Positions 10,929 through 33,212 of a DNA stretch of 64,000 nucleotides are shown here, piece after piece (the stretch's first letter is position 1; each line of letters begins with the position of its first letter). The position numbers and the translations under genes are program-made. The notes beneath the pieces are model-generated. The model was not told the origin of the DNA. It saw nothing but the letters and a program-made list of their open reading frames with translations, and made no database searches. Source of the DNA: a virus; IMG/VR virus record IMGVR_UViG_3300028802_000008, positions 13,320 through 77,319 of that record. The stretch is one strand, 5' to 3'.

Positions 10929-12038
10929 TTGATGGCTAATTCCCACATCGCCACCGTCTCGGCCGCACTGCTGCACGAGGCACTGAACAGAGCGAACAAG
11001 GTTGCCCCCACCAAGGGGAATGCTATGGACCGCGCTGCTGGCATCCAGATCGACTTCCGACTGGACGAGGCCCATATCCGGGCCACCGATCTCGATGTCA
11101 CCTTCTACCAGAAGATCCCGGTCGAACAGGTCAGCGAGGAATGCGTCTTGCGTCTGTCGTCGGTGGTGCCACCGTTCGTGGCATCGCTGTCGATGGACAA
11201 GAATCAGGTGATCCGATTCTTCCGGAACGACCAGAAGCGCATCATCATCCAGTACGGCAAGACTCGGACCAAAGCGACCATTCCCATGATCGTCGGGGAG
11301 TACCCGACGGTGAACTGGTACGACTACGAAGTGATGACCGACGCCAGTGACCTTGGCAGCAAGATCGCATCGGTTGCGTGGGCCACCGAGAACGACGCAT
11401 CGGGCGTGCTGTCCGGGATCAAGATCGATGGCAAGTGGCTGGAGGCTCTGTCCTCCAAGAACGCTGCTCGCATCCAGTGCGAGGTCGAGAGCGACGTGAC
11501 GGTGATCGCCGTCCTGAAGTCTCTCGTTCCTCTGGTCAAGTCCGGTTCCCGGCTGCGGATGATGACCCAGGAGGGTCGCATCATCGTCGCGCTGGATGAG
11601 ATGACCCAGGTGACATCCACCACGGTGCTGGGGGAGTGGCCGAATCTCGTGGAACGACTGGAACGCTTTGAGTTCCCGAACTCGGTGACGATCCGCAAGA
11701 CACGGTTCGCCGAGGCACTGGGACGCATCCTGAGCTTCGTTCGCAACGACCGACTGCCACGAGCCAAGGTAACCATCACCAATGACTCCATCGACGTGGT
11801 GCTGTCTGGCACCTTGAATGGTGACGTGCAGGACTCCTGCGCTATCTCCAGCCGGGAAGGGATCGAAGAAGATGTAGAGTTCACCTTCAACCCGACATGG
11901 CTGTTGGAGGCCATCGACACGTTCCCCGGAGCCTCCGTCAAGATCGAATACAACGGAAACCTTCAGCCAATCCGGCTGAGCGAACCATCCACAAGTTATG
12001 AGGCATACGTCATGCCCATGAGAGACATCGATGAGTGA
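10929..12038 (+). CDS. dnaN: DNA polymerase III beta clamp-like protein
   Basis: 369 aa; RATDLDV, EYP, LSGI, FNP.WLLEAI, YVMPMR C-terminus. Confidence 0.85.
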   Translation: MMANSHIATVSAALLHEALNRANKVAPTKGNAMDRAAGIQIDFRLDEAHIRATDLDVTFYQKIPVEQVSEECVLRLSSVVPPFVASLSMDKNQVIRFFRNDQKRIIIQYGKTRTKATIPMIVGEYPTVNWYDYEVMTDASDLGSKIASVAWATENDASGVLSGIKIDGKWLEALSSKNAARIQCEVESDVTVIAVLKSLVPLVKSGSRLRMMTQEGRIIVALDEMTQVTSTTVLGEWPNLVERLERFEFPNSVTIRKTRFAEALGRILSFVRNDRLPRAKVTITNDSIDVVLSGTLNGDVQDSCAISSREGIEEDVEFTFNPTWLLEAIDTFPGASVKIEYNGNLQPIRLSEPSTSYEAYVMPMRDIDE

Positions 12039-12044
12039 GGAACA

Positions 12045-12503
12045 ATGACCAAGAATCCTGGACCTGACAGCCTGTATCCCTACGCCGGATCAAGTGGTTG
12101 GTCAGGCACCGACACCAGCAAGGCGTCGGCCGACAAAGATGATGCCGAGGGGCGCACCCTTCGCCGTCACCAGATCACGATGGGTCACCTGGCCAATGCC
12201 GGTCCCCGTGGGGCGACGGTCAAGGAACTGCGTGACACCTACACCGAAGATCATCACGGCCGATGGTCGGCAGCGTTGAGCCGAGCCCACAAGATGGGGT
12301 ACATCTGCATGTTGGAAGACAAGCGTGTCGGTTGTCATGTGTACGTCCTGCCCGAGTGGGTGGGCGACCGCGTCACCATCGCTCCCCGTCCCCGTCGGAT
12401 GTCCGAAGTAGTTCGCGGAGAGTTGAAGGCTCTGGCCGAGGCTGGTGACCTGGATGGCATCCTAGAGTACTTGGATGATTCGCTCGTAACCGCCCCGGCA
12501 TGA
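12045..12503 (+). CDS. hypothetical protein (HTH-like)
   Basis: DTS..SA, GAT..EL pattern. Confidence 0.65.
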   Translation: MTKNPGPDSLYPYAGSSGWSGTDTSKASADKDDAEGRTLRRHQITMGHLANAGPRGATVKELRDTYTEDHHGRWSAALSRAHKMGYICMLEDKRVGCHVYVLPEWVGDRVTIAPRPRRMSEVVRGELKALAEAGDLDGILEYLDDSLVTAPA

Positions 12504-12740
12504 GGGACATACTCGCCATCCTCCTTGCTGGTGTCGTGGTTCCCGCCGTCTACTGCTACATGCGGTATCGATTCATGAACAGTGATCTCTGATGAGGGAC
12601 CACACCTACAACCCCAGCCGGAAGGTGGACATCACCGAGCCGGTCTTGGAGTACGACGGTGAAGTCATCAGGCCAGCATCCCATCCCAAGCGCGACCGCT
12701 CTCGGAACCGCCAAGCGAAGTTGTCCCGGAAGAGGAACCG

Positions 12741-13076
12741 ATGAGTAAAATCAAGCTGGCCTGCGGCGAAGTGTGGCCTTCGCGGTCGGGATGCACTGCG
12801 TGGGGATCGCGGTCATCTCACGGATGCCGACTCGACCCAGGCCACGACGGTATCCACCGCTGCCTCTGCGGACGCCCAAAGCCAGAGAGCGACCGTTACC
12901 CGTCAGTAACGGACGAACCATGCGAGTGCTGCGAACGAGAAGTCCTGACACGCCTGCGGCACGACTTCGATGACCCAGACGTAATCGTGGCGCTATGCGA
13001 TGAGTGCTCGGCTGTGCTGGAGCACAGAGTCGGTTACCCGTCAGTAACGACGGACGATGGCAAGATCGCGCCATGA
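12741..13076 (+). CDS. Cys-rich hypothetical protein containing two YPSVT repeats
   Basis: GAGGA RBS; HGC..H.G.H.C.C and CECC...CDEC modules. Confidence 0.5.
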   Translation: MSKIKLACGEVWPSRSGCTAWGSRSSHGCRLDPGHDGIHRCLCGRPKPESDRYPSVTDEPCECCEREVLTRLRHDFDDPDVIVALCDECSAVLEHRVGYPSVTTDDGKIAP

Positions 13077-13286
13077 AAGAACGCGAATGGGTCTGCAATA
13101 TTCTCCGCTGGCGCGTACGCATCTACATCGGAAGCTCGATGCACTCCGAGCGTCGCGTCCGAACCTGGCACTCCGACACCGGCAGCCGCGGCATCTACGC
13201 CGTCCCGTGGGAGATCGACAACCACGACGGGCGAGTGTTCGGCGCACAGTACCGCCGCCACCGATGAGCGGTTACCCGTCAGTAGC
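12895..13286 (+). repeat. three copies of GTTACCCGTCAGTA(A/G)C
   Basis: At 12895-12910, 13033-13048 and 13271-13286; GTTAC-N6-GTAAC inverted arms. Confidence 0.92.
13073..13267 (+). CDS. hypothetical protein
   Basis: ATGA overlaps at both ends. Confidence 0.5.
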   Translation: MKEREWVCNILRWRVRIYIGSSMHSERRVRTWHSDTGSRGIYAVPWEIDNHDGRVFGAQYRRHR

Positions 13287-13301
13287 GTCCGAGGAGACCT
13301 C

Positions 13302-13601
13302 GTGAGGAGGAGAACCATGAAGAGTAACCAAGGGATCGTCTACATCACAAGGAACGGAAGGGCTCTGACCGGTGCGGAAATTGAAGTGCTCGTGGCACAA
13401 TCCGAAGTCGCAGAATTTGAAATGGCCGATCGCTTCCCACCGGGTCGCACGGAGCCAGATGCCGATTCCCGCATGGCGGCTCGCGCCATCAACCAGCAGT
13501 ACCAAGCCCTCATTCTGGAGGGGATGGATGATGATGTGGCCGTCCGAATCATCGGAATGATGCTCGCCAACGCCGCTGCCCTGTATGAGCAGGGGGAATG
13601 A
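13302..13601 (+). CDS. hypothetical protein
   Basis: Strong GAGGAG RBS. Confidence 0.65.
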   Translation: MRRRTMKSNQGIVYITRNGRALTGAEIEVLVAQSEVAEFEMADRFPPGRTEPDADSRMAARAINQQYQALILEGMDDDVAVRIIGMMLANAAALYEQGE

Positions 13602-13703
13602 TCGCCCAGGATCGGCCGCTCAGCGTCCATTTCCGGGGCGAAACCCCCCTTTCTGGTATCCCGGTGGGGTCCAAATCGCCTACGAACGCTCAGGAGGGAC
13701 CAA

Positions 13704-14060
13704 ATGCCACACCTTGAGGAGCCGAAGATGGTGTTCGTCGTTGCCCAAGGCAGCGATCCGACCGAGATAGTCGACCGCGAGGTCGCTGTCGTCAACTACC
13801 TCATGACCACGCATCCGGGACATGTGTTCCTGTGTCGTGGCAGCTTCGTGCTGATCGAACTGAGGTTCGCCCGCCCACTCCAGGAGTGGTCGGACTTCTA
13901 CGTCAACTTGGTAGATCGTTGTGACGCCCTGTATTGCGTGGACGACTACCGCCGCCACCCGTTGGCCGACTTTGCTCTTGAGAACTACATGCCGATCCTG
14001 GGTGACGCTATGGATCTGGAACTGTTCCTGTCAGGGCTCAGCGTTCAAGATTCGGATTAA
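13704..14060 (+). CDS. hypothetical protein (possible diverged DUF1937-like)
   Basis: AGGAGG RBS; W......LVDRCDALY. Confidence 0.6.
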   Translation: MPHLEEPKMVFVVAQGSDPTEIVDREVAVVNYLMTTHPGHVFLCRGSFVLIELRFARPLQEWSDFYVNLVDRCDALYCVDDYRRHPLADFALENYMPILGDAMDLELFLSGLSVQDSD

Positions 14061-14174
14061 GCAATAGATCGCACCCATGAGAGCCAACGTCGCGAGCACC
14101 AACGGAACGACCACATGAGACCAATGATTCGATCCCTGTGGCTCTTTCACGCCCGAGAGTCTGCCTGATCACAA

Positions 14175-14648
14175 ATGCACAAGGGATGGTATTGGATCAC
14201 GGGAATCAACCCGGAACCCTGGACGCCCGGAACCGCCTTCCGATACGGAGGAGGGAGAGGAGCCGGGATCGCCAAGCAGGGCAAGCTCAGGGCGTACCAG
14301 GAGGCCGTGGGGGAGGAGTTCGCGTACCAGAACCCTCACTACGTTCCGATGATCGGTGAGTTGTCACTCACTTTCTACTTCTGGAGATCCACGGCTCACG
14401 GGAACGTGGCTGATGCCACCAACCTGCTCAAGTCCACCGAGGATGCACTTCAGCAGATTCTGTACGTCAACGATCGGCAGAACCGGCACGTCGCGAGCAC
14501 GATCATGGAGCAGTCTCCCGAGACGGCTCCGCATATCTTGATCACTATCGGCGCATGGGAGCGCCCGGAGATCGAAGTACCGGCAGGAGTCATCATCCCG
14601 AAGTACGCTGACATCGACTGGAAGCCACCAGACGACGACCTGTTCTGA
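14175..14648 (+). CDS. rusA: RusA-like Holliday junction resolvase
   Basis: D.TNLLKSTEDAL...YVNDRQ. Confidence 0.8.
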   Translation: MHKGWYWITGINPEPWTPGTAFRYGGGRGAGIAKQGKLRAYQEAVGEEFAYQNPHYVPMIGELSLTFYFWRSTAHGNVADATNLLKSTEDALQQILYVNDRQNRHVASTIMEQSPETAPHILITIGAWERPEIEVPAGVIIPKYADIDWKPPDDDLF

Positions 14649-30303: not shown

Positions 30304-31422
30304 ATGGAACCGAGAACTCTGTCAGCATCATCGATCAAGTGCTTCGAAGATTGCGAAGCCATGTACCACGCCCACTACATCGACCGGGTAAAGGAACGAT
30401 CGGGTGCCGCGGCTGATCTCGGAACCAGCGTCCACACAGCCTGCGAAGAGTGGGTGAACGCTGGCGCTCCCGCCGATGTCGACCTCCTGCTCAAGCAGTT
30501 CGACCAGGATGCGATCATGCACGGGCTGAACCAGGAGATGATCAAGGACGGCCGCAAAATGCTCCGGGACTTCTACGATCGCTGGCAGGAGTTCCCGCCC
30601 CACGAGGTTCTCACGACCGAAGTGAAAGAGACGTTCCCGCTCAAGGTTGGCAACAAGACAGTCCAGGTCACCTACATCTGGGACCGCGGTGATCGGATGC
30701 CCGACGGCTCGATCGATGTCATCGACTACAAGACGTGGCGGAAGGTGCTCGACGCTGAGGACATGCGCTCAACCATCCAGGTGCGGATCTACGCCCTGAG
30801 CGCCGCCATCAAATACAAGAGAGACGAGCCCCCGGCGATCTGGGTGACGCTCGATCAGATGCGAACCGGCCCCGTGAGCGTGAAGTTCACCCGTGAGGAC
30901 AACCAGGCCACCTGGCGCTACTTGAAAGACGTGTACCAGCGCATCCTGGCCAGCGATGGCACGAAGATGACGATCAACGAGAACTGCCGGTACTGCGTCC
31001 GCAAAGCCGACTGCCCCGAACTCGCTCGTGCAATCGAAGTCGGCAACATCGTCAAGCTCCGCAACGATCCAATGCGAGCCGCGACACGTCTGGCCGAACT
31101 CAAAGCTGCCCGGAACGCAGTCAGCGACACGATCGCTCAATTGGAAGACTTCATGAGTGAACTACTCGATGAGCATGAAGTTCCCGTGATCAACTACGAG
31201 ACCGGGGTACAGGTCAAGCTGGAGGTTCGCAAGAGCCGCAAAATTGAGCACCACGGGGTCAACCGGGTGCTCAATCTCGACCCGCTGGCACGTCTGAGTC
31301 TGCCAGAAATCGATGAGATCCTCGCCGGAGATCAGATCACCGACGAACAGAAGTGGGAACTTCGCAAGTACGTCACCACGACAGCCAACGCCAAGGCAAC
31401 TGCGGTCTTCCCCAAACGCTAA
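30304..31422 (+). CDS. PD-(D/E)XK Cas4/RecB-like exonuclease
   Basis: LSASSI...C, GTSVH, E, DR.D, IDYKT, Q..IY, CRYC.....CP. Confidence 0.88.
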   Translation: MEPRTLSASSIKCFEDCEAMYHAHYIDRVKERSGAAADLGTSVHTACEEWVNAGAPADVDLLLKQFDQDAIMHGLNQEMIKDGRKMLRDFYDRWQEFPPHEVLTTEVKETFPLKVGNKTVQVTYIWDRGDRMPDGSIDVIDYKTWRKVLDAEDMRSTIQVRIYALSAAIKYKRDEPPAIWVTLDQMRTGPVSVKFTREDNQATWRYLKDVYQRILASDGTKMTINENCRYCVRKADCPELARAIEVGNIVKLRNDPMRAATRLAELKAARNAVSDTIAQLEDFMSELLDEHEVPVINYETGVQVKLEVRKSRKIEHHGVNRVLNLDPLARLSLPEIDEILAGDQITDEQKWELRKYVTTTANAKATAVFPKR

Positions 31423-33212
31423 TTCTGATGTCCGGGTGGCAGTTCAGCTTCCAGCGTTTCGATTCGCTGCACAAGATGGGCAACGATGTCCCACAACTCT
31501 GTGGTGATCACGGCATACGAAATCCCCATCGGTTCATTTTGCAAGTCGTAAGCGATCGCTTTGGGCAACGCTGTCATCAATTCTTCTGCAATGAACCCAC
31601 GCTGATCCTTGCTGCGCGTATACGCACCACAAGGTACTTCCGCCGTACCGCAGCACTTATCAGACTCAGTGCAATCATGCGGAACGGACTCAATATGATT
31701 AGGTGACAACTCAAGAGGTTGATGCCCCATCGCCTTCCAGCGACGGTTGACGTCGCGGAAGCGCTCATTACCTCTGATATGAAGCTCACCAACCTCGGCG
31801 TCGTACACGACGGTGCGAACGTTCTTGAGCGCTTCATATGCCTTGTCTCGATGTTCTGACGTAGCCGAACGTACATTCACCTTCAAATCACGCGATGAAG
31901 GCTTAACGAAATCTCCAGCCTTGATCCAGTTGTAGTCAGTGGCATTATTGTTCTTGAACTCAAACATCTCACCGACGCCACCGTTGACTTGCATAGTCGG
32001 TGCAAAGCCATAAGGCGTCACCCATGCCGCATACCCGCAGACGAGTCCACCGGAGCGAGCCTGCATTCCCATGCTGGTGTGGCCTCCCGCGCTATTCACC
32101 CAGTTCGTGATGCAAGGACCAGCATTGGAAATGAACTGTCTTCCGGCCGTAACGTCCATAGTCGTCGCGACAGCGTAAGCGCTAAAACCAACCGTGGAAG
32201 TCACGCCCCCGTTGTTGATGATAAGTTGATCGTCGCTGTTGCCTCCGATTCGCAACGTGCTGTACGCACGAAGGTGTGCATTCGACGTTGAAGAGACGTG
32301 ATCCAAGAGGAAGTAACCGCAGTTCCCGATGTAGCAAGTCCAGCCAGTATCTGATGCCCAAGGCCCAATCCTGATCCGGTGTCCGGTCTTGGACGTACCA
32401 TTGAAGTAGTTGCGAACATAGGTGTCTGTGTCCGACGAGACATAGCCGCCTTCGGCGCGGACATAACTCGCGCCAGTAATCGCGCCTGTAACAGAAAGAG
32501 CGCCCGCTACGTTCGCCGCGCCGTCGGTATTGAATGTGCCAGCCACGTTCACTCCAGCAGAATGAACTTGTACTTGGTGAGCACCGTCGTTGGCACCGGC
32601 CCGGATAAACACAGCCCCACCCGTATTTGCCGAGACGAATGAGTTGGTCCCATCAGCCAGAAGAACATAAGCTGTCGCTGCGTAAGACGCAGGATGCAAC
32701 GTAAGATATGCGCCAGCGTGACCAGGGTGCATCTGCATGACCCAACCACCCAAGGTGGTCGGGTTGTTCGGATTCTGAATCGTGAGGATGTCTTTGCCAG
32801 CAATCCGGTGGAAGATCTTTCCACCGCTGGGAACATCATCACCCTGGTTGATGCCAACCGACAAAACGTCTTCGATGTAGAGAGCACCTGGGCGACCCGA
32901 TATGCGGACAGTCTGACCAGCGAACGGCTGAGCACTCCCGTAGGGGACAGGGAAGGTCGGGGCTTCTCCCGGCCATTGACAGAACGCTACGCGCAGTGTG
33001 GCGTGGACGCTGATGACCGTCGCATACCTGACCTGTGGACGCTGTTCATCCACCACTTCGTGGGCGTAGCTACGAATGATGTCCCGCATCTGCGCGGCGC
33101 TGTTGAAGGTGGAAAGCGAACTGGTCGCACGAGTCGCGGTCGGTGTCGCGATGACAGCAGACGTGGATCTCGCCCCAGATCGGCGGTACACGGAAAGAGA
33201 GGTTGTGACCAT
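31419..33212 (-). CDS. tail fibre with intramolecular chaperone (S74-like) domain
   Basis: SSRDLK.N, GFIAEE, ISY, C-terminal coiled coil. Confidence 0.8.
   Translation of the reverse strand: MVTTSLSVYRRSGARSTSAVIATPTATRATSSLSTFNSAAQMRDIIRSYAHEVVDEQRPQVRYATVISVHATLRVAFCQWPGEAPTFPVPYGSAQPFAGQTVRISGRPGALYIEDVLSVGINQGDDVPSGGKIFHRIAGKDILTIQNPNNPTTLGGWVMQMHPGHAGAYLTLHPASYAATAYVLLADGTNSFVSANTGGAVFIRAGANDGAHQVQVHSAGVNVAGTFNTDGAANVAGALSVTGAITGASYVRAEGGYVSSDTDTYVRNYFNGTSKTGHRIRIGPWASDTGWTCYIGNCGYFLLDHVSSTSNAHLRAYSTLRIGGNSDDQLIINNGGVTSTVGFSAYAVATTMDVTAGRQFISNAGPCITNWVNSAGGHTSMGMQARSGGLVCGYAAWVTPYGFAPTMQVNGGVGEMFEFKNNNATDYNWIKAGDFVKPSSRDLKVNVRSATSEHRDKAYEALKNVRTVVYDAEVGELHIRGNERFRDVNRRWKAMGHQPLELSPNHIESVPHDCTESDKCCGTAEVPCGAYTRSKDQRGFIAEELMTALPKAIAYDLQNEPMGISYAVITTELWDIVAHLVQRIETLEAELPPGHQN

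Follow-up and report, generated by a model that had tools for sequence, protein, structure and literature searches.

A near-invariant, translated 16-nucleotide junction at the joints between tiny genes of uncultivated soil actinophages

Judged from assembled contigs, a near-invariant 16-mer, GTTACCCGTCAGTA(A/G)C, marks the places where tiny genes meet in many uncultivated soil actinophages. Comparison of its copies shows, within the contigs at hand, a conserved architecture around the 16-mer, constraint at the level of the nucleotides, and mosaic joints that lie at or inside the motif. The 16-mer may form the invariant core of a translated adaptor for mobile tiny genes, with exchange of these genes through recombination between copies, an account to which we assign about an even chance of being correct. 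The ways in which phages acquire and lose their numerous tiny orphan genes are, to our knowledge, still mostly unexplained, and the conserved linker sequences suggested decades ago have seldom been found.

Organization of the motif array

The window, as the whole 64,000-nucleotide stretch analysed is called here, holds three copies of the motif starting at positions 12895, 13033 and 13271, as the first-pass annotation had reported, and all three are on the plus strand. No further copy with two or fewer mismatches is found in the window or in the full 77,319-bp record, while the expectation for shuffled sequence is 0.02 copies. The genes of this region form a single plus-strand run chained by stop/start overlaps, the first of which is a 152-codon gene. 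Downstream of it are a 30-codon membrane-like ORF (12500-12592) and a 50-codon gene (12592..12744) that ends in an ATGA overlap at 12741-12744. The next ORF (12741..13076) has 111 codons and encodes two Cys-rich modules. Copy 1 (12895..12910, GTTACCCGTCAGTAAC) and copy 2 (13033..13048, GTTACCCGTCAGTAAC), which had initially been taken for the ends of separate modules, both lie inside this single ORF; copy 1 forms an in-frame linker from module 1 to module 2, and copy 2 is located nine codons before the stop codon. All three copies in the window are read as YPSV, as was originally proposed. The accompanying proposal that a start codon follows the motif needs correction for copy 1: the ATG at 12920 is out of frame with the 111-codon ORF and opens an ORF of only 17 codons. 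Copy 1 is followed by a junction remnant (12911..12922, GGACGAACCATG) that has ATGC where other contigs have ATGA, and it is the presence of CCATGC instead of CCATGA that leaves modules 1 and 2 fused in frame.

A 64-codon cassette gene (13073..13267) lies between copies 2 and 3 and has an ATGA overlap at each end. Copy 3 (13271..13286, GTTACCCGTCAGTAGC), a variant with a GTAGC end, is carried by a 13-codon bridging mini-ORF (13264..13305, MSGYPSVASEETS). This mini-ORF is coupled at both ends, just as the initial description had it, since its start is the ATGA that ends the 64-codon ORF and its own end is GTGA. An SD-like stretch (GGAGGAGAACC, 13306..13316) then abuts the ATG at 13317 of a 94-codon flanking gene (13317..13601).

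The genes adjacent to motif copies are diverse and encode Cys-rich mini-proteins, some of which have weak, sub-threshold matches to DnaJ-type CxxCxGxG repeats, as well as membrane peptides of 26-37 residues, an SLT-like enzyme, and proteins of unknown function. Searches of Pfam and PHROGs with the cassette proteins of the window gave no match, and a PDB sequence search with the 111-codon ORF was empty. Module 1 (residues 1-50; 12741-12890) is a member of a widespread Cys/His domain family of about 45 residues, approximately ACPxxWPAxxxCxAWGAPxxHGCKLxPGHDGxHxCxCG, in which C8, C18, H27, C29, P33, H35, C41 and C43 are invariant. The family was found in 29 cluster representatives (including proteins P0002-P0029), and the domain is mostly C-terminal or stands alone. 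One representative likewise terminates in GYPSVT, and another has unrelated sequence from just before the expected site of the motif. The AlphaFold model of module 1 is confident (pLDDT 89) and has no fold match in the PDB, and the module belongs to no Pfam family. Module 2 (12915-13073) has the layout CxCC...HD...CDEC...H and no detectable relatives; its structural neighbours in the Atlas are HNH and endonuclease VII families, at TM scores of 0.31-0.37 for a low-confidence model and with no sequence support.

Two further features of these genes can be recorded here. A second short linker, (Q/P)EN(P/T/V)(E/A), the DNA of which includes AGAGAACAC, occurs near the ends or starts of cassettes (L037:4950-4985, L042, L043 and L056:1030-1050; proteins P0003, P0006, P0007 and P0018) and is sometimes internal to proteins that resemble fused cassettes. 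The gene for the SLT-like cell-wall enzyme lies immediately upstream of the array in the motif-bearing phage genome G002 (31063-31596) and near a copy in G001 (75361-75867), a homologue follows a motif copy in contig L045, and the window has a gene of the same family at 1656-2225.

Conservation of the junction in other contigs

An exact scan of viral contigs detects more than one copy of the 16-mer in each of four further high-GC viral records (L015, L019, L020 and L021), and a scan of metagenomes with a 19-mer adds 25 loci, mainly on short contigs of 60-65% GC, which brings the non-identical copies in viral and metagenome contigs from soil to about 52. Both in soil metagenome contigs and in other phage records, which measure 43, 77 and 105 kb, the copies occur 2-4 to an array, clustered and on the same strand; complete or large phage records have 2-3 clustered copies apiece. 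The sequencing runs listed as containing parts of the window are also soil metagenomes, and no RNA data set is among them. Every position of the motif is retained in 49-52 of the 52 copies, a level of conservation that looks higher than it truly is because copies were gathered by exact-word seeds, and conservation drops to background immediately outside the 16 nucleotides. The 24 copies that did not serve as seeds comprise 13 exact ones, 10 with one mismatch and one with two.

The architecture of the junction is equally regular. In all copies listed the motif is on the sense strand and the frame that gives YPSV is open. Downstream of the motif the usual order is G, an SD-like GA.GA, and CC-ATGA, the canonical form being GGA(C/G)GAACC-ATGA, so that the adaptor is translated as YPSVT[D/E]EP* with its stop codon overlapping the next start. 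An ATGA or GTGA stop/start overlap is found within 45 nucleotides of the motif in 38 of the 52 copies, and 24 copies share a single fixed spacing. In 11 copies the motif is carried by a bridging mini-ORF of 10-13 codons whose ATG is exactly two codons ahead of the TAC. Since the adaptor is always in one frame, either the upstream gene or a bridging mini-ORF stops on the start codon of the next gene.

Comparison of window positions 12000-14200 with GenBank phages in either search mode yielded no DNA match beyond chance level (E = 3-9), and the 29-nt junction occurs in no GenBank phage; the large terminase is 41-47% identical to Gordonia phage terminases. The motif string is absent from the literature searched and no description of the element was found there. 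Taken with the comparisons below, this suggests that the element is previously undescribed and is a variant of known motif-bounded gene shuffling.

The same 16 nucleotides occur in other settings as well. Ten viral contigs of 44-54% GC (L004, L008, L010, L013, L023, L026, L029, L031, L032 and L033) have an identical 16-mer within small non-coding clusters of related TTAC-N6-GTAA palindromes, examples of which are L029:634-700, L031:1640-1740 and L032:7160-7210, and the palindromes are often extended to TAAGTTAC...GTAACTTA. The cluster of L032 has the start of a tyrosine integrase gene on one side and an HTH_17 excisionase gene on the other, and it looks like a set of attP arm sites or operators. 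In a metagenome-assembled genome of an Actinomycetota (L035:7286-7317), a TTTTT stretch, an exact 16-mer and GGAGGTCAGGTC-ATG of an alpha/beta-hydrolase-like gene follow one another downstream of MoxR/vWA-like genes; further loci are L039:691, L040:104 and L061:1910. The chromosomal copy could be due to chance, as about four matches to the 19-mer are expected, or could be a host regulatory site of the same kind.

Constraint on nucleotides and alternative functions of the motif

The constant frame of the motif, and the fact that the same tail ends many unrelated small proteins, could mean that the shared C-terminal sequence YPSVT(D/E)EP is itself selected as a peptide tag, for example as a degron or docking motif. 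We regard this as most improbable in view of how the tail is encoded. A scan that admitted every codon for YPSVTD[E/Q]P plus the overlap gave the exact spelling only and no synonymous one. At positions 5, 8 and 14 of the 16-mer, which are third codon positions, the copies show no variation, and throughout the approximately 52 copies the Val codon is always GTA and the Ser codon always TCA, except for a single TCG. TCA and GTA are typically rare codons in high-GC actinobacterial genomes. Where bases do vary, 8 of the 12 variants change an amino acid, and the acidic part of the tail is merely the SD read in frame. Third positions that are almost unvarying argue for selection on the nucleotides rather than on the peptide.

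Constraint of this kind might act on the mRNA. In such a case the 16-mer would be a small hairpin or a protein-binding site just ahead of the SD, with control over how the next cistron is translated, coupled or processed, and it would be shared because portable genes bring their own expression signal. The motif is always on the sense strand and translated, and usually lies 0-20 nt 5' of an SD-like stretch and a stop/start overlap; bridging mini-ORFs would keep ribosomes moving through it; the chromosomal copy in L035 sits right before GGAGG and the ATG of the hydrolase gene; and the position is analogous to that of the SAS/ESAS elements of cluster K mycobacteriophages (PMC3203893). The motif nevertheless makes a poor RNA structure. 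The lone hairpin has a free energy of only -2.2 kcal/mol and does not form in the minimum-energy fold of copy 2 or copy 3, the stem is not extended by any covariation, most single variants break a pair instead of giving a wobble, and no Rfam family matches. Moreover, SD-ATGA junctions function without the 16-mer elsewhere in the same arrays, which have so few copies of it. A search of the phage for an antisense partner detected no complementary stretch of more than 9 nt elsewhere. With the evidence divided in this way, a role in the mRNA seems unlikely.

Alternatively, the 16-mer could be an operator, either for a phage repressor or for a host regulator of the GlnR/MtrA type, as the first-pass annotation had suggested. 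The motif is a literal fit to the GlnR box of Streptomyces venezuelae, GTnAC-n6-GTnAC, with half-sites 11 bp apart (reviewed in PMC10704036), related TTAC-N6-GTAA palindromes are clustered in non-coding DNA of other phages, and the chromosomal copy is close to a gene start. While the fit to the pattern stands, the remaining observations are against the operator alternative, which we consider quite improbable. GlnR/MtrA boxes have free spacers and are found in promoters, whereas the 16-mer is intragenic and its spacer and 'n' positions vary no more than the consensus positions do, the spacer being retained in 51-52 of the 52 copies. All copies are coding and share one frame and one strand, they are confined to one array, and neither a promoter-like site nor a plus-strand terminator-like site was detected in 11800-14300. 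The nearest relative, L036, has the same neighbouring genes without any copy of the motif. GTNAC sequences were also assessed as restriction sites, and no bias was found across four phage records.

Changes of gene content at the motif

L036 is 80-88% identical to the window up to position 12507, and the identity resumes exactly at the ATG at 13317, from where the 94-codon gene is conserved. The 50-codon gene on the other side has a homologue in the 51-codon gene of L036, which places the left breakpoint at the ATGA of 12741-12744 and the right end of the segment at the SD-like stretch. The segment with all three copies (12741..13316) corresponds in L036 to one unrelated gene of 61 codons, and the motif is absent from the entire 58.8-kb L036 record. 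This makes 12741..13316 an acquired or replaced segment.

Pairs of copies in different contigs similarly share one neighbour at a time. Eight pairs share the upstream gene alone and about five the downstream gene alone, and both genes are shared only in duplicate contigs of one phage and in adjacent copies of a single contig that have overlapping flanks. One case involves three contigs. L055:730 matches L019:2984 at approximately 95% identity through the final base of the 16-mer and is unrelated to it beyond that point, whereas it is unrelated to L052:1136 before the motif and approximately 97% identical to it afterwards. Together these two alignments make L055:730 a chimera with its joint inside the 16-mer. 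A contig from sequencing run X4 contains window positions 13033-13284, a stretch from copy 2 through the 64-codon gene to copy 3, and its foreign flanks begin at both 16-mers; the 64-codon ORF differs from that of the window at 13099, 13108 and 13246, all of which are synonymous third-position changes. In run X2, positions 12693-12922 are followed by other DNA and then by another motif copy, and the assembly graph of the source run branches at 12892-12922 into several alternative flanks. In-frame fusions at the motif recur, as seen for copy 1 of the window, L052:813 and L054:517. The contig sample includes no clean presence/absence pair for a single cassette. In L036, the contig pairs, the L055:730 chimera and X4, gene content therefore changes exactly at the motif in relatives and metagenomes, which is the outcome that the initial proposal of a shuffling system had called for.

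Not every breakpoint of the region involves the 16-mer. The ATGA at 12741-12744 is succeeded by three different genes in the window, in L036 and in a contig of run X2, and since this ATGA is free of the motif, gene boundaries are breakpoints here, and stop/start overlaps hot spots of replacement, regardless of the 16-mer. The 30-codon membrane-like ORF (12500-12600 region) is missing in L036 and lies between direct repeats of ATGAGGGAC, the sequence with which the next gene starts. The arrangement looks like the insertion of a mini-gene into a stop/start overlap, the junction being duplicated in the process.

Possible mechanisms of exchange

In the account that we favour, the cassettes would be genes of 30-100 codons, many of them encoding Cys-rich zinc-finger-like proteins or single-pass membrane peptides, that sit in short arrays of uncultivated soil actinophages, and window positions 12741-13316 would be a three-copy array acquired relative to the nearest relative. 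As sequence, strand and frame are identical in all copies, a crossover in the adaptor would swap, delete, insert or fuse the neighbouring genes in frame, and it would leave both reading frames and the stop/start coupling intact. Exchange would probably proceed through general or short-homology recombination between copies with no dedicated recombinase in cis, as proposed for the PeSL cassettes discussed below, and the sequence of the adaptor would be retained because only cassettes with an intact adaptor stay mobile.

The weak point of recombination by homology is length. The identity common to some joints is only 16-20 nt, which is less than the minimal segment for efficient pairing by RecA (31-34 bp) or Red-beta (23-27 bp) (PMC3945230). 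Annealing proteins of the RecT or ERF type were not found in the motif-bearing phages, and the assembled contigs showed neither an excision product nor a circle. Homology-driven exchange alone also leaves unaccounted for the sharp edges of the 16-mer and its asymmetric spacer, which is the least variable part of the motif, and these two features suggest a sequence-specific reader.

Such a reader could be a recombinase or nickase acting in trans, supplied by the host or another element, for which the 16-mer would be the site and the asymmetric spacer the crossover region, much as in an integron. The 5-6-5 layout, the invariant spacer and the sharp conservation edges would be expected of a site of this type, the shortest joints offer too little identity for efficient homologous recombination, and all copies have a single orientation. 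A double variant, CTTAC...GTAAG, keeps its outer positions complementary, and a lower-GC unrelated phage contig has the 16-mer and TTAC-N6-GTAA sites between its tyrosine integrase and excisionase genes. When the motif is compared with core sites of known recombinases, the 5-6-5 layout and invariant spacer match, but the arms are far shorter and variants in a single arm are tolerated. The arms of the dif, lox and lambda core sites are all longer than 5 bp.

The search for the enzyme itself counts against this possibility. A Xer-like recombinase is indeed encoded at 613-1446, as had been noted, and matches Phage_integrase and SAM_1 of Pfam. However, this sole tyrosine recombinase of the window lies 11 kb from the array, is not conserved among motif-bearing phages, and has no homologue in G001 or G002. 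These two genomes, which are 100% and 98% complete, respectively, contain no tyrosine or serine recombinase recognized by Pfam. An all-against-all comparison of the ORFs of G000, G001, G002, G003 and G005 revealed no gene peculiar to motif-bearing phages; the SLT-like gene is absent from G005 only because that contig is truncated. In addition, the motif does not fit GTTRRRY, and the 19-mer is not enriched in cellular genomes, with 2 matches in 596 Gb. We consider a site-specific enzyme acting in trans rather unlikely. The original reading of an integron-like system is borne out by the comparative data as far as an array of mini-cassettes is concerned and, since G001 and G002 lack tyrosine and serine recombinases, is unsupported with regard to the tyrosine-recombinase mechanism. 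If a trans-acting enzyme were responsible after all, soil actinophages, even those without an integrase, would run an integron-like exchange at a site that is itself translated in a fixed frame; the combination of gene swapping with in-frame domain fusion would amount to a kind of exon shuffling of phage mini-proteins.

Comparison with known systems

The closest analogue of the 16-mer junction is the PeSL cassettes of T4-type phages, which are bounded by promoter-early stem-loop motifs (Arbiol et al. 2010, PMC2839356; Comeau et al. 2014, PMC4122927). In both systems a short conserved motif between small orphan genes bounds insertions, deletions and replacements among relatives, there is no dedicated integrase, and recombination between copies has been proposed. 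PeSL motifs differ in that they are intergenic and untranslated, consisting of a sigma-70 promoter and a terminator stem-loop, whereas the 16-mer is translated in a fixed frame and associated with a stop/start overlap. Being translated and having neither promoter nor terminator, the 16-mer is not a member of the PeSL class. Mini-circles have been shown experimentally for PeSL, while the joints at the 16-mer are known from assembled contigs alone.

The SAS and ESAS elements of cluster K mycobacteriophages (Pope et al. 2011, PMC3203893) are likewise short, conserved, one-orientation elements of actinophages that lie a few bases before the starts of unrelated non-structural genes, overlapping or adjoining the SD. 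SAS is nevertheless an unrelated, asymmetric 13-mer that contains the SD and is located 3-7 bp before start codons, whereas the 16-mer has no SD, is followed by the SD-like GGAsGA, and ends at least 9 nt before the start. SAS sites are also numerous over the right half of each genome, with 93 listed, and have not been reported as mosaic breakpoints (PMC3203893); the 16-mer, in contrast, lies ahead of the SD, is limited to 2-4 copies within one array, and travels with cassettes.

Integrons resemble the arrays described here in being composed of small promoterless genes in one orientation that end in an inverted repeat associated with recombination, and the arrays even include units like empty cassettes. 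The attC sites of integrons are 57-141 bp in length, have R''-L''/L'-R' boxes, are conserved in structure and not in sequence, and are read by the adjacent IntI integrase at GTTRRRY cores. The 16-mer, on the other hand, is a translated site with no linked integrase, and it reads GTTACCC in place of GTTRRRY. Its conserved unit is 16 nt with sharp edges and is conserved in sequence, unlike the folded structure of attC, and PF00589, the domain of an IntI-type integrase, is absent from the complete motif-bearing G001 and G002.

Implications for phage gene exchange

One near-invariant 16-nt junction is common to unrelated soil actinophages of 43-105 kb, and gene content shifts at it. Because the junction preserves both the reading frame and translational coupling, any gene could be plugged in behind any other or fused to it. 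The junction thus points to what may be a new plug-and-play mode of phage gene exchange. Should recombination at the motif be confirmed, it would provide a testable mechanism for the flow of accessory genes in actinophages, as well as a handle with which to catalogue mobile mini-genes in metagenomes, which are likely to be host-takeover or anti-defence factors, and possibly a natural adaptor for the engineering of phage operons.
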